37,582 nt of DNA from an uncultured Planctomycetia bacterium (lineage in GTDB: Bacteria; Omnitrophota; Gorgyraeia; Tantalellales; Tantalellaceae), in contig CAZUYM010000001.1 in NCBI GenBank assembly GCA_964624805.1, positions 1 through 37,582 on the forward strand, given 5' to 3'. Shown here in pieces: positions 2,966 through 30,654 of the stretch; the stretch's first letter is position 1; each line of letters opens with the position of its first letter. Under the pieces are notes generated by a model that ran no database searches, was not told the DNA's origin, and saw nothing but the letters and a program-made list of their open reading frames with translations. The position numbers were made by a program, and so were the translations under genes.

Positions 2966-3493
2966 ATGGCAAACGAGATAAAAAGATCAAAAGGATGGTT
3001 TCTGACGGCGGGTATTCTTCTTATGGTTATCGGCATGGCAGCTATTACCGTTCCGTTCGCGTTCTCTATCGCTATTGAGATCCTGGTGGGCTGGGTGCTC
3101 ATAGTAAGCGGTGTTGTACAGATCGTCCATTCGTTCAAAGCGCTTAATACCGGTAGATGCATAATGAGGCTCGTAGGCGGGTTGGTTTATCTCGTGGTCG
3201 GAGGTATCTTCCTGGCTTATCCCATGCAGGGCGTTCTCACTCTAACACTTATCTTGGCGGCTCTCTTTCTCTTCGAGGGTCTTCTGAAGATAGTCATTTC
3301 GCTCCAGCATCGTCCGGAACAGAACTGGGTCTGGCTCCTTATCAGCGGTCTGGCGGGTATTGTTATCGCTACCATCATATGGGCCGGCTGGCCAAGCACC
3401 TCAGCGTGGGTAATAGGCCTTCTTGTGGGGATAAACCTGATATTCGGCGGGATGTCGCTTATAATGCTGTCATCGTCTTTGCACGAGGAATAG
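2966..3493 (+). CDS. hdeD: HdeD/DUF308-family acid-resistance membrane protein
   Basis: 175 aa with six predicted TM helices in the paired-repeat arrangement of DUF308. Resembles E. coli HdeD in layout and in the C-terminal LVGINLIFGG segment. Strong AGGAGG SD. Confidence 0.7.
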   Translation: MANEIKRSKGWFLTAGILLMVIGMAAITVPFAFSIAIEILVGWVLIVSGVVQIVHSFKALNTGRCIMRLVGGLVYLVVGGIFLAYPMQGVLTLTLILAALFLFEGLLKIVISLQHRPEQNWVWLLISGLAGIVIATIIWAGWPSTSAWVIGLLVGINLIFGGMSLIMLSSSLHEE

Positions 3494-3515
3494 GGAATAG
3501 AGAATAGAGGCGACC

Positions 3516-4940
3516 CTACAACATCATGCTGAGTTCTTCGAGAGACCTGTTCTTGGTCTCTACCCTGAAGATGAGCGTCACCATGAAGGCAAGGACCGAT
3601 AGCATCGCCAGCATGATAAGCGTGAAAGTCATACCCACCGAGGCCTTGACCACCGGCAGCATGAAGATCCCTAAAGCTGCCCCCAGTTTTGCCACCGCCG
3701 CGGCGAACCCGTGACCTGAACCGCGCATATTCGTCGGATAAAGCTCGGCCGGTATTATGAAAGTCGTGGCGTTCGGTCCCATGTTCATAAGAATATTGAA
3801 TATAATGAATCCGGAAAAAACCAGGATAAGGTTTCCGGTATTGCCGGCGTTCGCGACGGTGGAGGCGGCCAGGACCAGAAGCCCCAGTATCATTCCTCCG
3901 AAACCAAAGAGCTGCAGCTTTATGCGGCCCCATTTATCTATAAGCATGATGTTGAGCAGAAACCCCACAACAAGAAAAATATCAAGGAACATCGCTCCTT
4001 CGGTGGCCTTGAAGTCGCTGGCTATTGTGCCGAGGCCTTCCCCTGAAAAGGCCATCGCTGCCAGAATTATGGGCGTAAAGATACCCACGGCATAAGTGAT
4101 GATATCCATAAGAAACCACGGGACGACCGCGAGTGTCGTGCGTTTAATGAATTTTTTATTAAAAAGATCCCTGTAGTTGGACTTTTCAACCTTAAACTCG
4201 TCCGGAAGTTTATGGGCTTCCGCAGCCAGCTTGTGGATCTCGGATCCTCTGGAAGGCACCAGTTTCTTGATAACCTCCGCGGCTTCAGCATGTTTGCCGT
4301 GCAGAAGGTACCACCGGGCGCTTTCGGGAACGGACATCCTTAAGAGGATGACGACGATCGCCGGAAGGGCTCCGAAAGCCAGCATGAAACGCCAGGCTCC
4401 GAAAGAGGGGAATATCTTCAGTATAACCAGTCCCACAGCCGCCCCGGCGGCCATTCCAAGTGCCTGGAAACTGAAAGCTCCTATCAGCATGCGGCCTCGA
4501 GTACGGGCGGGCATGAATGCCGAAATGTAGGAAGCGCATATGGGGTAATCAGCTCCTATGCCTATTCCAAGGAGAAATCGGAACGTTATGAGGGAGACCA
4601 CATTCCACGAAAACGCCGAAAAAAGAGACAAAATAATAAAAACCACCAGATCCAGCATATATAATGCTTTTCGGCCCCACCGGTCGCTCAAAGTCCCGCC
4701 GACCGACGCCCCGACTACCGCGCCCAGGACTGCCGCCGCGCCTATTAAGCCGACTATATAAGGGGAGGTCGGGAAGGTCTTCATTATCAGAGGCAGCGCC
4801 ACCCCTATGATGAAAAGGTCGAAACCGTCCAGGAATATTCCCATCGCGGACAGCCACCATATCTTCCAGTGGACAGGTGTGAGCGGCGCCTCGTCCATCA
4901 GGCGTGTCATCTCTCTGTGAATGGATGCTCGTGTATTCAT
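3516..4940 (-). CDS. MFS transporter (sugar-porter/metabolite:H+ symporter-like), substrate unknown
   Basis: 12-TM layout, motif-A-like GTLSDRWGRK, PESARW after TM6, central cytoplasmic loop. Diverges from the decarboxylase operon. Confidence 0.85.
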   Translation of the reverse strand: MNTRASIHREMTRLMDEAPLTPVHWKIWWLSAMGIFLDGFDLFIIGVALPLIMKTFPTSPYIVGLIGAAAVLGAVVGASVGGTLSDRWGRKALYMLDLVVFIILSLFSAFSWNVVSLITFRFLLGIGIGADYPICASYISAFMPARTRGRMLIGAFSFQALGMAAGAAVGLVILKIFPSFGAWRFMLAFGALPAIVVILLRMSVPESARWYLLHGKHAEAAEVIKKLVPSRGSEIHKLAAEAHKLPDEFKVEKSNYRDLFNKKFIKRTTLAVVPWFLMDIITYAVGIFTPIILAAMAFSGEGLGTIASDFKATEGAMFLDIFLVVGFLLNIMLIDKWGRIKLQLFGFGGMILGLLVLAASTVANAGNTGNLILVFSGFIIFNILMNMGPNATTFIIPAELYPTNMRGSGHGFAAAVAKLGAALGIFMLPVVKASVGMTFTLIMLAMLSVLAFMVTLIFRVETKNRSLEELSMML

Positions 4941-22468: not shown

Positions 22469-22497
22469 TTGACAAAAATATCAAAAAAACGTATAAT
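22469..22497 (+). promoter_or_regulatory. Perfect-consensus sigma70 promoter of the Rrf2 regulator gene
   Basis: TTGACA (22469-22474), exactly 17-nt A-rich spacer, TATAAT (22492-22497). Confidence 0.7.
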
Positions 22498-22500
22498 TGG

Positions 22501-22523
22501 ACTAAGTTGATAAAGATAGTAAT
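22501..22523 (+). promoter_or_regulatory. Copy 1 of the exact 23-bp repeat ACTAAGTTGATAAAGATAGTAAT (candidate Rrf2 operator or leader motif)
   Basis: Starts 4 nt after the -10 box, overlapping the expected transcription start. Identical to 22987-23009. Confidence 0.5.
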
Positions 22524-22541
22524 GTAAAATTTGAGGTGAAT

Positions 22542-22964
22542 ATGAGGGTTTCAGCGAGATGTGATTATGCATGCAGGGCTCTTTTGGAGCTGTCTTTACA
22601 TTGGCCGGATAAGACCCCGGTGCATATACATCAAATATCCGAAAACCAGGAAATGCCCGAAAGGTATCTGGTACATATCCTGCTGCAGCTCAAAAGACTC
22701 GGCCTGGTAACCAGCTTGAGGGGCAAGGAAGGCGGATATACTCTAGCCAAGTCCCCGGAAGACATAAGGCTTGGCGAAGTAATGAAGGCGATAAGCGGCG
22801 ATCTTTTGCCGATATCAGACTCTGCCTTGATCAGTGGATCCGTTTTTGTAGGTATATGGAAAGAAGTAGAGGGGGTCATGGGGGACATTTTAGGTAAGGT
22901 TTCTTTTGCTGATATTTGTAAAAAGATGACGCAGAAAGAAAAAGTTATTATGTACCAGATCTGA
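22542..22964 (+). CDS. Rrf2-family transcriptional regulator without the Fe-S Cys triad (CymR-like)
   Basis: Winged-HTH block ISENQEMPERYLVHILLQLKRLGLVTSLRGKEGGYTLAK. No C-terminal Cys cluster. ATG at 22542 lies 5 nt after GAGG. Confidence 0.85.
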   Translation: MRVSARCDYACRALLELSLHWPDKTPVHIHQISENQEMPERYLVHILLQLKRLGLVTSLRGKEGGYTLAKSPEDIRLGEVMKAISGDLLPISDSALISGSVFVGIWKEVEGVMGDILGKVSFADICKKMTQKEKVIMYQI

Positions 22965-22986
22965 TATTTTTTTTGTGTTTAACATT

Positions 22987-23009
22987 ACTAAGTTGATAAA
23001 GATAGTAAT
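22987..23009 (+). promoter_or_regulatory. Copy 2 of the exact 23-bp repeat. Here it forms a longer dyad, ATTACTA-N12-TAGTAAT.
   Basis: Lies 22 nt after the Rrf2 stop and 13 nt before the GTG of the DUF2061 gene. Confidence 0.5.
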
Positions 23010-23022
23010 AAATGGAGATAGC

Positions 23023-23244
23023 GTGGAACATCCTAAAAGATCATTTATTAAAAGTATAACCTGGAGGATCATTGCGGTCTTGACTACAATGATCGCTGTG
23101 TACATATACAGCAAGGACCTTAAAGAGTCTTTTGTTATCGGTGTAGGGGCGAATTTTGTGAAATTCTTTTTGTATTACGCGCATGAACGATGGTGGAATA
23201 AGCTGAAGTTCGGGTTGAAGGAACAGCCCGAATATCAGATCTAA
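23023..23244 (+). CDS. DUF2061-family small membrane protein
   Basis: KRSFIKSITWRIIAVLTT...FFLYYAHERWWNK matches the DUF2061 pattern as I recall it. GTG at 23023 follows GGAGA. The ORF-track start at 22975 would read through the 23-bp repeat. Confidence 0.6.
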   Translation: MEHPKRSFIKSITWRIIAVLTTMIAVYIYSKDLKESFVIGVGANFVKFFLYYAHERWWNKLKFGLKEQPEYQI

Positions 23245-23297: not shown

Positions 23298-23322
23298 CCC
23301 TTGACATCAAAGATGTCAAGGG
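23298..23322. promoter_or_regulatory. Perfect 11-bp inverted repeat (CCCTTGACATC-AAA-GATGTCAAGGG) upstream of the APS reductase gene
   Basis: Read directly from the sequence. Contains TTGACA (23301-23306). No T-run follows. Confidence 0.45.
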
Positions 23323-23393: not shown

Positions 23394-24119
23394 ATGAGTT
23401 TGCTCGGAACGAAGGAAGATTTGAAGACACTGGTGGAGAAGCTGAACTTCAAGGAGAAAGTGGATAGGTCGCTTCAGCTGATAGATGAAGCTTACCGTAA
23501 ATTCGGTGACGGTCTTGTCGTGGCTAACAGCCTGGGAAAAGATTCCGTCCTGGTATGGGACCTTGCTAAAAAGGTAAGCCCCGACATAAGGGGTTTTATC
23601 GTGACGACGCGTTTCAAACCGAAAGAAACTATTGATCTCATGGATGATGAGGTCGCCAGGTATCCGGAGATGAAAATTTTTAAAAATGACGCGCCTGTAG
23701 CGGATAAACTTTATGAAACACAACCTGACAAATGTTGTGATATACTAAAGGTCGAGCCTACAAGACAGGCCATTGATGAAATGAAAGTCGATTGTTGGGT
23801 TACCGGTCTGCGTTGTACGGAAGGAAGAACGCGAACAGATTTCGAAGAGGTCGAGGAACGGGATGAGGGGCTGGTTAAACTCAATCCTATTCTCATCTGG
23901 AAAGAAAGGGAAGTCTGGCAGTATCTGGCTCTTTATGGAGTGAAGGTCAATCCTCTTTATAAGGAAGGATATCGTTCTCTTGGCTGCGCTCCGTGTTCGA
24001 AGATAACTACGGATGACAATGAGCGTGCCGGACGATGGATAGGGACAAGTAAATGCGGCGGCGAATGCGGCATACATACCAGGCCTCTTAAGAACAATAT
24101 GGATGGCGAGGGTATTTAA
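23394..24119 (+). CDS. cysH: Assimilatory adenylylsulfate (APS) reductase, Fe-S-containing CysH-family
   Basis: PAPS_reduct fold (ANSLGKDS). Cys pair KCCDILKVEP plus GCAPC (the CC...CxxC 4Fe-4S ligand pattern of APS reductases). C-terminal ECGIH catalytic motif. AGGAGG SD before the ATG at 23394. Confidence 0.85.
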   Translation: MSLLGTKEDLKTLVEKLNFKEKVDRSLQLIDEAYRKFGDGLVVANSLGKDSVLVWDLAKKVSPDIRGFIVTTRFKPKETIDLMDDEVARYPEMKIFKNDAPVADKLYETQPDKCCDILKVEPTRQAIDEMKVDCWVTGLRCTEGRTRTDFEEVEERDEGLVKLNPILIWKEREVWQYLALYGVKVNPLYKEGYRSLGCAPCSKITTDDNERAGRWIGTSKCGGECGIHTRPLKNNMDGEGI

Positions 24120-24133
24120 ACTCGGAGAAAAAA

Positions 24134-24607
24134 ATGGATTATCTGCCGGTAGCGGTAAAACTCAAAGGACGAAGAGTAATAGTTGTCGGCGGAGGAAAAG
24201 TGGCGCTGCGCAAGATCCAAAATTTTCTGGATGCGGGCGCCCTTGTTCATGTAGTGTCGCCTTTGCTTGAGACAGAGGTCAAAGGGCTTCACGAACGGGG
24301 AGAGATAACCTGGACGCCGCGGAAGGTATCCGATGAGGATATTTCTGACGCGGTACTTCTTGTATCCGCGACGGATGATACTGAGACCAACGAGAGGGTG
24401 AGCCGCCTGGCCAGAGAAAGAGGCATACCGGTCAACGTCGTTGACCAGCCCATCTTGAGCGATTTTATTTCTCCAGCGGTCATCCGTGCGGATAAAGCGC
24501 TGATCGCCGTATATACCGACGGCAAGGATCCGGTCCTATCCAGGGACCTCAAGGATTATTTAAAGGAAAAGTGGAATGATTTTCTTCTGTTTAGGGATAG
24601 ATCATAA
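24134..24607 (+). CDS. sirC: Short precorrin-2 dehydrogenase / siroheme synthase N-terminal-domain protein (SirC/CysG-N-like)
   Basis: VVGGGKVALRKIQNFLDAGALVHVVSP Rossmann motif. 157 aa. Confidence 0.75.
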   Translation: MDYLPVAVKLKGRRVIVVGGGKVALRKIQNFLDAGALVHVVSPLLETEVKGLHERGEITWTPRKVSDEDISDAVLLVSATDDTETNERVSRLARERGIPVNVVDQPILSDFISPAVIRADKALIAVYTDGKDPVLSRDLKDYLKEKWNDFLLFRDRS

Positions 24608-25586
24608 AAGTTCCCCCCTTCGCGACAGGGAAGAAGCGTTCAGGTCGAGGCGGAGAATAGAGAAGGCTTGTCTCGATGTAGGAGTCAGCGCGCGAGCGCT
24701 GTTTACCTGCAACAGGACGGAGATCTACGGAGAGGCCGCAGATGATGCCGCGGCTTTGGTCATCACCCGGCGCATATGTGCCGCTTTCCCGGATGTTTTC
24801 GAAAAGGCTTATATCAAGGCAGGCGACAGGGAAGTGTTCCGCCATGCCTTGAGGCTGGCCGCAGGTCTTGAATCACAGTTGATCGGAGAACGAGAGATCC
24901 TGGCGCAGCTTGATGCCTGGAACAGCACAAACGAATCCCCGGACATGTACGGTTTCTGGGCCGGTATACTGGGTATAGCCCGGGGTATTAGGGAACATTC
25001 CGGACTTGAGGGAGTTGTTTCAAATATCGCGGAGCTCATACGGGATGACCTGAGGAAGCGGATCTCTCCGCATGGACCCAGGTCGATAGCTGTCGTGGGC
25101 ACCGGAAAAATAGCGGAACTTTTTGCCGAGAACTCCAGATCTGACGAAGAGATCTTTTTCGTCGCTCGAAAAAGGCATAAAAAAGCAAGACGACTGGCCA
25201 GGAGATCCGGCGCTCAAGCAGTCCTGGTTAGCGATCTCCCGGAGATACTTTCAGTAGTTGACGCCGTCGTAAGCGCTACTTCCAGCCCCCACCGGGTGTT
25301 GAGTGAAAAAGATCTGGCGCATGTGACGGGAAAAAGAAAATCTGATCTTTACATATACGACCTTGCCGTACCCGGAGATGTGGCTCCCGGAGCAGGAGAC
25401 CTGGAGGGGGTAGTTTTGAACAGGCTTGATGGCCTGAAGACGGTTTTTGACGAACATAATGCATCGGCGGGCCGCTGTATCGCAAAAGCGGAAATGTTAG
25501 TTGAGAAGGCTATACTGAGAAGAGAAAGGGAAGAAAAAGAAAATGGAACTAAGAGTAGGGACACGTACCAGTCCGTTAGCGCTTAA
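24576..25586 (+). CDS. hemA: Glutamyl-tRNA reductase (short form)
   Basis: GIDHKSSPLRDRE, catalytic Cys in TCNRTEIY, NADPH loop VVGTGKIAE. 336 aa. Overlaps sirC by 32 nt and hemC by 44 nt. Confidence 0.85.
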   Translation: MIFFCLGIDHKSSPLRDREEAFRSRRRIEKACLDVGVSARALFTCNRTEIYGEAADDAAALVITRRICAAFPDVFEKAYIKAGDREVFRHALRLAAGLESQLIGEREILAQLDAWNSTNESPDMYGFWAGILGIARGIREHSGLEGVVSNIAELIRDDLRKRISPHGPRSIAVVGTGKIAELFAENSRSDEEIFFVARKRHKKARRLARRSGAQAVLVSDLPEILSVVDAVVSATSSPHRVLSEKDLAHVTGKRKSDLYIYDLAVPGDVAPGAGDLEGVVLNRLDGLKTVFDEHNASAGRCIAKAEMLVEKAILRREREEKENGTKSRDTYQSVSA

Positions 25587-26190
25587 GCAGATAGATGAAC
25601 TACGAGAAAAGGTCCCGGGAGTCGTATTCCGGACGGTCGGGATAGAAACAAGGGGAGACAAGGATAAGACGACCCCGCTTGACTCGGTTGAGAACGGCGA
25701 TTTTTTCACGCATGAAATTGAGCAGGCACTTTTGGCCGGCGAGATAGATGTCGCGGTGCACAGCGCGAAAGACCTGGAAGAAAATATACCGGAGGAGCTT
25801 GTAACGGCGGCTGTAACGGCATCGATAAGCAGGTTCGACTGTCTGGTCTCGGGAGGAGGCCAGACATTCTGTACTCTGCCAGGACAAGCGATAGTTGGCA
25901 CCAGCAGCAAGACAAGGAAAGACGGGGTCCTCGGATATCGCAATGACCTTGTCGTCCGGGATATCCGTGGGGATATAGATGAAAGGCTCGAGCTTCTCGA
26001 TGAGGGTGACTATGACGCTGTGATAGTGGCGCAGGCTGCTCTTATGCGCTTGGGGTACTATGAAAGAATGACCGGGGTGATCCCTTTCAGCATAATAGAG
26101 CCTAACCCTTTGCAGGGAAGTTTGGCGGTGCAGGTGCATAGGGAAAGGAAAGATCTCCAAGAAATATTCAGGTTAATAGATGGGAAATAA
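25543..26190 (+). CDS. hemC: Hydroxymethylbilane synthase domains 1-2 only (C-terminal domain 3 absent)
   Basis: LRVGTRTSPLALKQ, VHSAKD, IVGTSS, GDIDERL, YDAVIVAQAAL, QGSLAVQV align along E. coli HemC up to about residue 220. The ORF then stops at 215 aa. Confidence 0.8.
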   Translation: MELRVGTRTSPLALKQIDELREKVPGVVFRTVGIETRGDKDKTTPLDSVENGDFFTHEIEQALLAGEIDVAVHSAKDLEENIPEELVTAAVTASISRFDCLVSGGGQTFCTLPGQAIVGTSSKTRKDGVLGYRNDLVVRDIRGDIDERLELLDEGDYDAVIVAQAALMRLGYYERMTGVIPFSIIEPNPLQGSLAVQVHRERKDLQEIFRLIDGK

Positions 26191-26899
26191 ATCAGGAAAA
26201 GTATATATAGTCGGCGCGGGTCCCGGTGATCCGGAGCTGATAAGTGTTAAAGGCCTGAATGCCTTAAAGGCGGCGGACTGTATTCTTTATGATTTTCTGT
26301 CCGCGCCGGAACTTCTGTCGTACGCGAAAGAAGACGCCGAACAAATATGTGTGGGAAAATCCGACGGGTTACACCTGAAAGAGCAGGATGAGATCAACCG
26401 GCTGTTGTATGAAAAGGCGGATGAACATGAAAAAGTTGTACGGCTCAAAGGGGGTGATCCTTTTGTTTTCAGCAGGGGCGCTGAAGAAGCGGACTTCCTG
26501 GGATCTAAAGGGGTGGACGTAGAGGTCATCCCCGGCATAACTTCGGCGTTCGCGGGGCCGCTCGCCGCCGGCATTCCGCTCACCGTCAAGAACGAGGTGC
26601 AGTCGGTGGCGGTGGTAACGGGGCGAAAAAAAGACCCGGATGCCGAGATAGACGCTCCGAATGCGGGAACGCTTATATATCTTATGGCCGTAGCTAATAT
26701 AGCGAATGTGGTAAAAGCTTTGAGAAAAAGTGGCAGGGGCAATGATGTTCCATGCGCGTTCATCGAAAAAGTTACAAGGCCCGATCAGCGTGTAGTTGTG
26801 GCTACTGTAGGAACAGTAGAGGAAAAGGTAAAAACCGAGGATATAAGACCGCCGGCGGTATTTATTGTCGGAGAAACGGTAAATAAGATAAAGAGATGA
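26180..26899 (+). CDS. cobA: Uroporphyrinogen-III C-methyltransferase (SUMT; CobA/SirA)
   Basis: VYIVGAGPGDPELISVKG, VRLKGGDPFVF, VIPGITS. 239 aa, no fused HemD domain. Confidence 0.9.
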   Translation: MGNKSGKVYIVGAGPGDPELISVKGLNALKAADCILYDFLSAPELLSYAKEDAEQICVGKSDGLHLKEQDEINRLLYEKADEHEKVVRLKGGDPFVFSRGAEEADFLGSKGVDVEVIPGITSAFAGPLAAGIPLTVKNEVQSVAVVTGRKKDPDAEIDAPNAGTLIYLMAVANIANVVKALRKSGRGNDVPCAFIEKVTRPDQRVVVATVGTVEEKVKTEDIRPPAVFIVGETVNKIKR

Positions 26900-27804
26900 A
26901 AGTAGACGTAAAGAAACTTATATATCCGCTTTTTGTAAAAAAAGGCGTCGGTCTTAAGGAAGAGATCCCTCATCTGGAAGGCCTTTACAGGATGTCTCCC
27001 GATGTGTTCCTGGACGAGGTAAAAGAGCTGGAGGGTTTAGGGATAGAGAACATCCTTATATTCGGCATTCCCGAAGCGAAAGATCCTGAAGGAAGCGAAG
27101 CTTACTCGGAAGATAATCCCGTGAGCATAGCTGTAAAACTTTTAAAAGATAATAACATCAACGTTAAGGCCTTCACGGACGTTTGTCTTTGCGCGTATAC
27201 ATCGCATGGGCATTGCGGAATAACAGGGACGGACGGGGTTGAAATTGACAGCGAAAAAACACTGCGTGCCTTAAACCGGGTCGCGCTCCGGCATGCCGAA
27301 GCCGGAGCGGATTACGTAGCGCCGTCGGCCATGGCTAAAGGGCAGGTGGGAGCCATCAGGAAAGCTTTGGATGAGAACGGGTTCAATAAAGTTAAAGTAA
27401 TGGGATATTCCGCGAAGTTCGCCTCGAACGCGTACGGTCCTTTCCGGAACATAGCGGATTCGGCGCCTAGATCCGGCGACAGGTCCGGATATCAGCTTGA
27501 CCATACGGATAGAGAGACGGCTTTTGAAAAGATAAAAGAAGATGCCGCCCAGGGCGCGGATATAGTTATGGTGAAACCTGCTCTGTGGTATCTTGATATT
27601 ATAAAAGAGGCCGGGGCTATTGTTGAACTCCCACTGGCTGTCTACAATGTCAGCGGGGAGTATCACATGATAAGAGAAGGTGCTAAGAAAGAACTCTGGG
27701 ATGAACAAAGAATGGTGGAAGAGATAATGAATTCGTTTGAGAGGGCAGGAGCGGATCTCATAATAACATATCACGCGAAAGACATCGCTAACTGGGCTAA
27801 ATAG
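26896..27804 (+). CDS. hemB: Porphobilinogen synthase (Zn-type)
   Basis: Cys-rich Zn site DVCLCAYTSHGHCG. Schiff-base lysine context VMVKPAL. ATGA overlap with cobA. Confidence 0.9.
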   Translation: MKVDVKKLIYPLFVKKGVGLKEEIPHLEGLYRMSPDVFLDEVKELEGLGIENILIFGIPEAKDPEGSEAYSEDNPVSIAVKLLKDNNINVKAFTDVCLCAYTSHGHCGITGTDGVEIDSEKTLRALNRVALRHAEAGADYVAPSAMAKGQVGAIRKALDENGFNKVKVMGYSAKFASNAYGPFRNIADSAPRSGDRSGYQLDHTDRETAFEKIKEDAAQGADIVMVKPALWYLDIIKEAGAIVELPLAVYNVSGEYHMIREGAKKELWDEQRMVEEIMNSFERAGADLIITYHAKDIANWAK

Positions 27805-27805
27805 A

Positions 27806-29035
27806 ATGAGGGAAAAAATAAAAAAGGCGAAACAGCTTTTAGTAGGGGGAGTAAACAGCCCGGTACGTTCTTTCGGAAACGTCGGGATGGAACCCTTTTT
27901 CGCTGAAAAAGCGAAAGGGTCCAGGATATATGACGAAAAAGGGAAAAGCTATATAGACTATGTCCTTTCTTTCGGAGCTAATATACTGGGGCACGCTCAC
28001 GGTGAAGTGGTTAAAGCCGCGAAAGCTGCCGCTGAAAAAGGCATGAGTTACGGAATGACTACGCATTACGAAGTAGATCTGGCCGGGATAATAGAGGGGG
28101 CAGTTGAAGGCATTGAGAAGATAAGGTTCGTAAATTCCGGGACCGAAGCTGTTATGAGCGCCATACGGCTTGCCCGGGGATACACTTCAAGGGACAAGAT
28201 AGTCAAGTTTACGGATTCATATCACGGACATGCCGATCATCTGCTGGTTAAAGGGGGGTCGGGCCTGGCGACGCTGGGGATCCCCTTTAGCAGCGGAGTT
28301 CCCGCCGATTTTGTAAAACATACACTTTTGACCGGCTATGGCGACAAAAAGAATATAGATAAGATATTCAGAAAATACGGCGACAAAATAGCGGCGGTCA
28401 TTGTTGAGCCCGCGGGGGGCAATTACGGTGTTATCCCGCCGGACGCGGATTTTCTGAAGCACATAAGAAAACTTACTCGCAAATATGGAACGCTACTTAT
28501 CTCTGACGAAGTCATAACGGCTTTCAGGTTCTCCTTCGCCGCGCTGTCGGACGAGCTGGGCATTAAACCGGACTTGTATTGCCTGGGAAAGATCATAGGC
28601 GGAGGGCTCCCCGTGGGCGCTTACGGAGGCAGCAAAAAAATAATGAAATGTCTCGCGCCGGAAGGAAAGGTATATCAGGCTTCGACGTTTGGCGGGAACC
28701 CGGTCGTAATGAATAGCGGCATAGCGGCGCTGAAAGTATTGTCAAAGAACAAAAGCCGTTATAAAGATCTCGAGGAGAGGGTGCGCCAGCTGGCAGACAC
28801 GTTCACAAAAGAATCTAAAGACAACGGACATTCCCTGGAAGTCTCGAGATACGGGTCGATGTTCAGCATTAAGTTCGCCAGAAGAGGGGACTTCGGAAAA
28901 TTTTACAAAAAAATGTTCTCGAACGGGGTGTTGCTCGCGCCTTCAGAATATGAAGCTGATTTTATATCGTTCGCTCATACCGGCGAAGATATAAAGAATA
29001 CCAAAACAGCCATCAGGAAGGCAATGCGTTTTTAA
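27806..29035 (+). CDS. hemL: Glutamate-1-semialdehyde 2,1-aminomutase
   Basis: Class-III aminotransferase pattern. NSGTEA, DEVITAFR, PLP-lysine context LGKIIGGGLP. Confidence 0.9.
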   Translation: MREKIKKAKQLLVGGVNSPVRSFGNVGMEPFFAEKAKGSRIYDEKGKSYIDYVLSFGANILGHAHGEVVKAAKAAAEKGMSYGMTTHYEVDLAGIIEGAVEGIEKIRFVNSGTEAVMSAIRLARGYTSRDKIVKFTDSYHGHADHLLVKGGSGLATLGIPFSSGVPADFVKHTLLTGYGDKKNIDKIFRKYGDKIAAVIVEPAGGNYGVIPPDADFLKHIRKLTRKYGTLLISDEVITAFRFSFAALSDELGIKPDLYCLGKIIGGGLPVGAYGGSKKIMKCLAPEGKVYQASTFGGNPVVMNSGIAALKVLSKNKSRYKDLEERVRQLADTFTKESKDNGHSLEVSRYGSMFSIKFARRGDFGKFYKKMFSNGVLLAPSEYEADFISFAHTGEDIKNTKTAIRKAMRF

Positions 29036-29055
29036 AAGAAGGAACAGGAGGGGAA

Positions 29056-29787
29056 ATGGCAAGCCATGAAATAGATTATGACGCGCTGAAAGAAAGGGGA
29101 TTTCTTCAGGCCCGGGAAAAGGGCCATGTCACGTTAAGGACCAGGTTCCCGGCGGGGAATTGCACAAGTGATGACCTTGAAAAGTTAGGGGATATCGCGA
29201 GAAAATATGCCGGAGGGGCGCTGCATTGTACCGTAAGGCAGGGCATAGAGATACCTAACATAAAACTTGAAGATGTCGACAACGTGGAGAAGGAAATAAT
29301 AGCTTCCGGGATCGATGTGGGGGCCTGCGGCCCCAGACTGAGGGCGATCACATGCTGCCCGGGCAAGAACTGGTGCAAAAGAGGTCTTGTTAGCACGATC
29401 TCACTGTTTGAGAGACTGGAAAACGAACGCGGGATAAAATGCGGCATGCATCTTCCGCATAAGTTCAAGATATCTATTTCCGGGTGTCCGAATACCTGTA
29501 CCCGGGTCCAGGGAACAGAGTTCGGCCTGCACGGCGCGGTTGATGTAAACCATCCCGAGAAACGAGCAGGTTACATCGTATACGTGGGCGGATGCGGAGG
29601 CAAAACTCCGCATGAGGGGATAAAACTCAGCAAGGTCTATACCGAGGATGAGGGTATGGATGTGATCGAGAAAGTAGTGGAATTCTTCAAAAACAACGCT
29701 AAGACCAGACAAAGATTAGCGTTATTGATAGACGAGATGGGGAAAGAAAATTTTCTGAAAGCTATAGGAGAAAAAGAAGCAAATTAG
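29056..29787 (+). CDS. Small siroheme/[4Fe-4S] sulfite reductase (low-molecular-weight assimilatory type)
   Basis: 243 aa. Nitrite/sulfite-reductase ferredoxin-like half-domain, then the coupled cluster motif CCPGKNWC ... GCPNTC (C-x5-C...C-x3-C). AGGAGG SD. Confidence 0.75.
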   Translation: MASHEIDYDALKERGFLQAREKGHVTLRTRFPAGNCTSDDLEKLGDIARKYAGGALHCTVRQGIEIPNIKLEDVDNVEKEIIASGIDVGACGPRLRAITCCPGKNWCKRGLVSTISLFERLENERGIKCGMHLPHKFKISISGCPNTCTRVQGTEFGLHGAVDVNHPEKRAGYIVYVGGCGGKTPHEGIKLSKVYTEDEGMDVIEKVVEFFKNNAKTRQRLALLIDEMGKENFLKAIGEKEAN

Positions 29788-29792
29788 GGAAT

Positions 29793-30461
29793 ATGCCGGT
29801 CATGGAAACTTTTGAAAAAAAAGCCAAAGAGATCAATGATATTTTAGCGGATTTGACGCCGATAGAACGGATAAAATGGGTCGGTAAAAAATTCAAGAGC
29901 GGCATAGTGGCAACGACCAGCGGAGGACGTACATCGCGCGTAATTCCGGCTCTTGTGCAAAAGGCCCTGGGAGGATCGGTGCCGACGATATTCGTCGATA
30001 CCGGACATTATTCCAAAGAGACCTATATTTTCGTGGACAGGATGCAATCAGAAGGCGTTGACATAAGGTATTATCAGGCCAGTATGAGTATAAAAAGAAT
30101 GCAGGCGCTGCACGGGGATCTCTGGCTAAGCAAAGACAAAAAATTCGAAAAGTTTTTAGATATAACCAAGCATGAACCCCTGAACAGGGCGTTCAGGGAA
30201 TTAGGCGCGACCGTGTGGGTCAGGGGAATAATGGGTTTCCAGACTTCCGAACGTTCAAAATCACATATATTCGAATATAAGAACGGCTTGTACAGGCTGC
30301 ATCCAATTATTGACTGGACACATAAACAGGCTCAAAACTATATAGAGGAAAACGGTCTACCTGTCAATCCGCACCACTTTGATATAACGAAAGGTCTCCA
30401 GGGTAAACTTGAGTGTAAGATCGGCGAAAAAGGCGGATTCAAGCAGGGGGAGGGGATCTAG
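29793..30461 (+). CDS. Second CysH-family (PAPS-reductase-like) protein lacking the Fe-S cysteines, with an altered C-terminal motif
   Basis: VATTSGGRTS, IFVDTGHYSKETY, ITKHEPLNRA, LHPIIDWT are collinear with E. coli CysH. No CC or CxxC. The C-terminus reads KLECKIGE instead of ECGLH. Confidence 0.75.
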   Translation: MPVMETFEKKAKEINDILADLTPIERIKWVGKKFKSGIVATTSGGRTSRVIPALVQKALGGSVPTIFVDTGHYSKETYIFVDRMQSEGVDIRYYQASMSIKRMQALHGDLWLSKDKKFEKFLDITKHEPLNRAFRELGATVWVRGIMGFQTSERSKSHIFEYKNGLYRLHPIIDWTHKQAQNYIEENGLPVNPHHFDITKGLQGKLECKIGEKGGFKQGEGI

Positions 30462-30507
30462 TACTTTGCTTGCCGATAGTCGACAGACAACAGTCCACAC
30501 ACCAGAT

Positions 30508-30625
30508 AAAATCCCAATGTCAAAATTCAAATGACAAATGAAATCCAAATGACTAAATCCAAAACATGGCGTTTTTGGATTTTGGATCTAGGAATTCTTT
30601 TGGATTTTGGGTTTTGGATTTTGAG
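30508..30625. repeat. Array of AAATCCAAA / TTTGGATTT nonamers arranged as a large interrupted inverted repeat between convergent genes
   Basis: AAATCCAAA at 30541-30549 and 30555-30563, with degenerate copies at 30508-30517 and 30522-30530. TTTGGATTT at 30574-30582, 30599-30607 and 30613-30621, plus TTTGGAT at 30581-30587. The central 10-bp hairpin is 30555-30564/30573-30582. Confidence 0.8.
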
Positions 30626-30654
30626 TTTATATTCGAACGGATCTTAGGATTTAA

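Follow-up and report, generated by a model that had tools for sequence, protein, structure and literature searches.

Regulators of the Rrf2 family combine a winged helix-turn-helix at the N-terminus with a long helix for dimerisation, and bind AT-rich dyads of about 23-27 bp that overlap promoters. IscR, which has three Cys and one His as cluster ligands and controls isc or suf genes, recognizes 25-26-bp operators and autoregulates from a site overlapping its own promoter. The known system closest to the one described below is CymR (YrzC) of B. subtilis and S. aureus, a master cysteine repressor of the same family that works with CysK, the protein into which CysE normally docks by its carboxy-terminal Ile. 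The tail of S. aureus CymR (...YMFYI), like that of CysE (...DDYII), enters the active site of CysK through a conserved terminal Ile; for the CymR tail the affinity is nanomolar (bioRxiv 10.1101/2024.09.19.614015). PMC9338935 states that B. subtilis CymR binds DNA solely when complexed with CysK (Tanous 2008, cited there), and describes the NsrR and RsrR operators as 23-bp 11-1-11 inverted repeats that overlap promoters and are bound by dimeric Rrf2 proteins.

The locus considered here lies in a 37,582-nt stretch of DNA (the window) from an uncultured bacterium placed by GTDB in the Omnitrophota (assembly GCA_964624805.1, contig CAZUYM010000001.1). A first-pass annotation of the window had pointed to an exact 23-bp repeat on either side of an rrf2 gene, proposing a pair of operators or, alternatively, a shared leader motif acting in the mRNA close to two start codons. 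The 23-mer, ACTAAGTTGATAAAGATAGTAAT, was found on the + strand at 22501-22523 and at 22987-23009, with the starts 486 bp apart, which confirms the coordinates and spacing first reported. The elements of the region are as follows.

22469..22497, + strand: promoter P1 (TTGACA at 22469-22474, 17-nt spacer, TATAAT at 22492-22497)
22498..22523, + strand: candidate operator O1, TGGACTAAGTTGATAAAGATAGTAAT (PWM score 30.3; position kept in relatives)
22542..22964, + strand: rrf2, coding for a 140-aa cluster-less CymR-like regulator ending ...VIMYQI (Pfam Rrf2, 7.7e-28)
22967..22974, + strand: T8 run directly 3' of the rrf2 stop (from spacer comparison)
22984..23009, + strand: candidate operator O2, ATTACTAAGTTGATAAAGATAGTAAT (PWM score 37.1; second sites in relatives)
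23023..23244, + strand: gene for a DUF2061 small membrane protein, GTG start, the first gene past O2 (Pfam, 1.3e-13; syntenic in relatives)
23394..30461, + strand: structural genes presumed to be controlled (Pfam and NCBIfam matches)
23394-24119, + strand: cysH1, PAPS/APS reductase

Downstream of cysH1 come six tetrapyrrole/siroheme genes (a cysG-N-like gene, hemA, hemC, cobA, hemB and hemL), then a small NIR_SIR sulfite reductase gene and the CysH-like cysH2, which ends at 30461 and closes the operon before the convergent trkH/trkA. Profile matches bore out the gene calls of the first-pass annotation for Rrf2, DUF2061, PAPS reductase, the siroheme genes and NIR_SIR.

Several further repeats were noted in the same region. 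Blocks of heptamers repeated in phase (GTAAACA... / CAGTTTA...), partly complementary to each other, are found with a G8-N7-C9 hairpin between the upstream STAS gene and P1 (22311-22410 and 22433-22459); similar heptad-repeat spacers are found in two other loci, L044 and L040. A 25-bp palindrome, CCCTTGACATC-NNN-GATGTCAAGGG, lies at 23298-23322, between the DUF2061 gene and cysH1. It occurs three times in the genome (the other two places being C13:7180 and C151:3134) and once in another Omnitrophota genome, beside an Rrf2 homologue (L047:228); it is a small dispersed palindrome family and not a site private to cysH. The AT-rich spacer that follows cysH2 (30500-30640) contains many short repeats (AAATCCAAA... 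/ GGATTTTGG...), which make up a long, imperfect dyad ahead of the convergent trkH. The genome also carries a second DUF2061 paralogue (C50:808-999, 50% identity), and no operator-like site was found on its contig.

The 26-bp dyad, its position and its conservation

The first-pass annotation had extended copy 2 of the repeat to the dyad ATTACTA-N12-TAGTAAT, and this motif is indeed present at 22984-23009. While the dyad as such stood, its extent did not: the true symmetric unit is longer, a 26-bp dyad of 11-4-11 architecture, and is found at both copies, namely at 22498-22523 (O1) and 22984-23009 (O2), the reported repeats being the last 23 nt of each. P1 is a perfect TTGACA-17-TATAAT promoter (12/12 in a consensus scan). 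O1 adjoins its -10 box, copy 1 beginning, as had been noted, on the 4th nucleotide after 22492-22497. The transcript is expected to start at ~22503-22506, as judged from the consensus -10 box, inside the left arm of O1. O2 is located 20 nt past the rrf2 stop and ends 13 nt short of the DUF2061 GTG; copy 2, which starts 22 nt past that stop, was correctly placed between the stop codon (22962-22964) and the GTG at 23023.

Orthologous rrf2 loci were gathered within the same family and class, and a scan of 185,579 species genomes contributed 80 more loci. Among named relatives, Ca. Aadella gelida stands closest, at 86% protein identity. Directly 3' of the rrf2 -10 box, the dyad is found in ~28 of 34 same-class relatives, and it is present in ~55 of the 80 loci from public genomes. 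Among close orthologues almost all, and among distant ones many, have it behind a TTGACA-17-TATAMT promoter, and the dyad begins at or beside the last base of the -10 box, before rrf2 orthologues ranging from 35 to 86% in protein identity. Most orthologous loci of the Omnitrophota have it at the rrf2 promoter, and so do MAGs labelled Planctomycetes, Zixibacteria, Nitrospirales and Dictyoglomaceae. Alignment of the relatives' sites yields the consensus TTTACTAWGTT-GATA-AACWTAGTAAA, which several genomes match as a perfect dyad (L025, L026, L061, L067). When the genome was scored with a PWM made from these sites, O2 gave the best value (37.1) and O1 reached 30.3, the next-best place scoring 15.8. 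In related loci, 784 kb in total, the PWM matches were nearly all at two places: ~45 nt 5' of rrf2 or just past its stop.

In the genome itself, the two sites have no companions. No further match to ACTAAGTTGATAAAGATAGTAAT with up to 3 mismatches exists elsewhere in the window, and dinucleotide shuffles (n=100) gave 0 matches even with 3 mismatches allowed. Additional copies had been expected upstream of sulfur genes; with 3 mismatches allowed, a search of all 214 contigs of the genome (1.44 Mb) returned no copy beyond the two, nor did the PWM scan reveal any other candidate regulon site above noise. The genome searched is 91% complete, and regulon members on missing contigs are possible. With two copies in the genome and nothing else above noise, the reading as a dispersed repeat family, which the first-pass annotation had named as a ground against its own proposal, is rejected. 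A weak PWM match at C13:203 falls in AT-rich spacer DNA ahead of an unrelated gene and was taken as chance. A search for a wider regulon in 19 relative genomes, allowing 2-3 mismatches, gave matches that were mostly intragenic or on a par with the reversed-pattern control. One operator-like site with 3 mismatches was noted where a PiT-family permease gene begins, immediately behind cysH (G187:C20:2994-3015, locus L161); the permease, by analogy with B. subtilis CysP, is a candidate sulfate permease. If real, this would be the sole extra regulon member seen. As regulon members, both this site and a further one, found at the promoter of a brnT-like toxin gene in genome G057, are possible but unconvincing.

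Altogether, comparison across genomes indicates that the dyad pair is a real and well-supported regulatory element, and the phylogenetic footprint strongly backs the operator-pair reading first proposed. The repeat very probably represents the cores of two palindromic operators of the adjacent cluster-less CymR-like Rrf2 protein, whose binding to O1 and O2 we infer from the distribution of the sites.

The regulator, its paralogues and their gene neighbourhoods

The protein is a typical Rrf2, scoring above the cut-offs of the family profiles PF02082 (97.7 bits, cut-off 30) and TIGR00738 (96.1 bits, cut-off 73.3). With the NCBIfam CymR equivalog NF047409 it reaches 69.8 bits, below the cut-off of 195, and was thus filed as CymR-like and not as CymR proper; its score with the IscR profile TIGR02010 (66.5 bits) is likewise below the cut-off (207). 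By sequence, the closest solved relative is the IscR of T. potens (4CIC, 3.5e-19). An AF2 model (pLDDT 85.4, with the tail, residues 133-140, disordered) matches the structures of IscR, CymR, RsrR and NsrR with E values down to 8e-11, the best matches being T. potens IscR and B. subtilis CymR, at an rmsd of about 2 A. As the first-pass annotation had noted, Fe-S ligand cysteines are missing; the region that binds the cluster in IscR, NsrR and RsrR has none. Indeed, no Cys occurs between residues 12 and 125, and C11 is the only Cys invariant in 14 orthologues. The analogy with CymR drawn at that stage is strengthened by a conserved carboxy-terminal tail: the ending [YF]-x-I is shared by 78 of 80 homologues, many distant ones having M-Y-Y-I, and the terminal Y-Q-I is invariant among close orthologues.

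Linkage to sulfur genes is seen throughout. In ~70 of the 80 loci, rrf2 is the leading gene of an operon that includes cysH, cysK, sir and siroheme genes, and no isc or suf genes lie near the present rrf2. By this gene context, Rrf2 control is linked to the genes of cysteine and sulfur assimilation.

Four Rrf2 paralogues are encoded in the genome. Two are of the Fe-S type and have no [YF]-x-I tail; the IscR-like paralogue on contig C42 ends in KKNPF. A second cluster-less paralogue (C130:177-2952) ends in ...EELNYFI and heads a metY-like gene, coding for an O-acetylhomoserine sulfhydrylase, and cysK. Its own promoter, TTGACA-17-TAAACT, is followed by a different palindrome, CTATATGTATATAG. The sulfur regulon may thus be divided between the two paralogues that bear a tail. 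The genome has cysK on C130 and cysE on C5 (about 3230-3980): the serine acetyltransferase scores 238.8 bits with TIGR01172 and ends in ...DDTKGKD, without a terminal Ile.

The second site and alternative readings of the pair

A second site following rrf2 is found in at least 12 other loci. It stands before DUF2061, directly after rrf2, in L050, L051, L053, L062, L070 and L075, and before cysH, again directly after rrf2, in L063, L068, L069, L083, L084 and L101. In two close relatives O2 is decayed (L052) or absent (L054), which indicates that it is dispensable and accessory. Short-spacer loci, including the present one, share the same layout, consisting of the rrf2 stop, a run of 7-8 T residues, ~10 nt with a weak -10-like hexamer (TAACAT in this genome) and then the site. 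The T run is conserved over many lineages, with or without O2, and has no stem before it; no intrinsic terminator was found between rrf2 and DUF2061, nor any conserved stem ahead of the run. Distances between O1 and O2 (473-501 bp, plus 591 and 671 bp) reveal no conserved helical phasing and so lend no support to a phase-dependent loop. We favour a role for O2 as a roadblock or auxiliary operator in this genome. In four loci (L008, L030, L031 and L033), the spacer between rrf2 and cysH has no O2 and was observed to hold a T run, a TATAAT-like box and the palindrome ATATAAAT-ATC-ATTTATAT, sometimes twice per spacer; this palindrome is possibly a variant operator or another factor's site.

Alternatively, O2 could be the operator of an internal promoter, P2, serving DUF2061, cysH and the siroheme genes, with no role as roadblock or in looping. 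Such an arrangement is suggested by L068, where the second site sits directly behind a canonical TTGACA-17-TATACT, and there it would indeed be the operator of an internal promoter. L093, with a site before its cysH gene 1.3 kb from rrf2, points the same way, as do the many short spacers in which a -10-like hexamer (TATAAC, TAATAT, TATCTT, TATGTT; here TAACAT) adjoins the site behind the conserved T run. However, the consensus promoter scan of this genome detected no plausible -35 element before O2 and no promoter ending there. The spacer measures just 19 nt, and the place of a -35 is taken by the conserved YQI-stop codons. We thus regard P2 as unlikely here, while keeping it as a serious candidate.

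Other explanations bear on the nature of the pair itself. Since the 23-nt identical copies directly bracket one gene, and O2 is decayed or absent in some close relatives, the pair might be a by-product of duplication or gene conversion, or repeats left for rrf2 excision, with a second copy that is not regulatory. Yet the identity stops exactly at the dyad edges and the flanks are unrelated. Moreover, where a genome has two sites, 2-5 of their 26 positions usually differ, with the consensus kept in both, and second sites recur in distant lineages before different genes. The 23-nt identity seen here is the upper end of constrained evolution and is not proof of a recent duplication. A by-product without regulatory function is a reading we consider very improbable. 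Scarcely more credible is that the sites are bound by a different regulator, be it the cluster-less paralogue encoded on C130 or an unrelated protein. Although the genome has four Rrf2 proteins to choose from, and a similar dyad precedes a paralogous Rrf2 gene in genome G016, the site accompanies this particular orthologous group across phyla, at the group's own promoter, and the C130 paralogue has its different palindrome.

The remaining possibility, that the motif acts in the mRNA as a leader element or hairpin upstream of both start codons, affecting translation or stability, draws on the position of the copies: both end 13-18 nt before a start codon, beside the Shine-Dalgarno sequence, relatives keep a gap of 11-22 nt, and the dyad could fold in principle. 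The pattern of sequence changes argues otherwise. When 63 distinct sites are compared, departures from the consensus affect one side only in 173 arm cells and are compensatory in 23, and the asymmetric centre reads GATA relative to the gene in 51 and TATC in 12, so the site occurs in both orientations. Over 62 sites, 74.2% of the arm cells are paired (26% unpaired), barely above the 72.1% obtained after within-column shuffling. A match of each arm to one consensus thus accounts for the dyad, the pattern that a symmetric protein dimer, and not an RNA helix, would impose. In addition, among the 8 inner arm positions in this genome 2 are not complementary, and a transcript starting inside the left arm of copy 1 would be without part of the stem. 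An RNA hairpin is rejected on the pair counts, and the shared-leader alternative of the first-pass annotation, finding no support, is the reading to which we give the least credence.

Proposed mechanism and comparison with known systems

Our preferred reading remains that of two operators served by the adjacent Rrf2 protein. As a dimeric winged-helix regulator, it would bind both O1 and O2 on the flanks of its gene. Under cysteine sufficiency, the dimer would occupy the two sites, probably with CysK held on its tails, the flexible ...YQI end docking in the CysK active site as in CymR. Because O1 adjoins the -10 box and spans the start, bound repressor would block initiation at the very strong P1 and turn off the whole operon, rrf2 included (negative autoregulation). 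Occupied O2 would add a second layer of repression confined to DUF2061, cysH, the siroheme genes and the sulfite reductase, sparing rrf2. It might do so as a roadblock, in cooperation with O1, or by covering an internal promoter in some of the relatives; this specific role is our conjecture. When sulfur is short, O-acetylserine would accumulate and compete for the CysK active site, the complex would dissolve and the operon would be derepressed. That the regulation is negative is suggested by the Rrf2 family and the tail, and the parts given to CysK as co-repressor and to O-acetylserine as inducer are modelled on CymR. Such a two-operator bracket would allow an autoregulated repressor to stay expressed while its targets are shut off more tightly.

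A broader reading, which we offer tentatively and with more doubt than confidence, combines several of these points. Co-repression by CysK through docking of a regulator tail may be an ancient and widespread device and not a speciality of the Firmicutes. A large clade of tail-bearing cluster-less Rrf2 proteins (Omnitrophota, Planctomycetota, Hydrogenedentota, Zixibacteria and others) may head sulfate-assimilation operons, with, in the present genome, one paralogue on the sulfate-reduction/siroheme operon and the other on the metY-cysK operon. Lastly, because the serine acetyltransferase is without a terminal Ile, Rrf2 regulators, rather than CysE, may be the main partners of CysK.

In the literature we found no description of this Rrf2 subfamily or of its operator motif, nothing relevant either on DUF2061 or, beyond the Firmicutes, on sulfate assimilation under an Rrf2 regulator, and no account of transcriptional regulation of sulfur assimilation in the Omnitrophota and several other uncultured phyla. 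The present analysis offers for these organisms an operator consensus and a putative regulator of sulfur assimilation, and the aromatic-x-Ile tail could serve as a simple sequence marker for CymR-type, CysK-dependent regulators far outside the Firmicutes.

Conceptually, this is a standard repressor-operator system. Like NsrR and RsrR, it is predicted to place a dimeric Rrf2 protein on an inverted repeat with 11-bp arms at a promoter; it differs from them in the conserved asymmetric 4-bp centre (GATA) in place of a 1-bp one, in the sequence of the operator and in the absence of a cluster. With IscR of E. coli and Thermincola potens it shares an AT-rich dyad of similar operator length. In contrast to IscR, the protein is without the Cys triad or the His ligand, and its gene sits among those for sulfate reduction and siroheme synthesis and not with isc or suf; we know of no [YF]-x-I tail of this kind in IscR. 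The likeness to CymR goes further. It comprises the winged-helix fold (2Y75 of B. subtilis, rmsd about 2 A, TM 0.79-0.87), the lack of Fe-S ligands, the linkage to cysH, cysK and sulfur genes, and a flexible carboxy-terminal tail ending in aromatic-x-Ile (compare YMFYI in S. aureus). To our knowledge, the CymR box has no evident likeness to the clean 11-4-11 operator of this locus. Identity to CymR in the structural alignment is about 21%, and the present regulator belongs to the Omnitrophota and other mostly uncultured phyla, not to the Firmicutes. Unlike CymR, it appears to be autoregulated, its gene heading its own operon, its regulon seems local instead of global, and a second operator frequently completes the bracket around the repressor gene.
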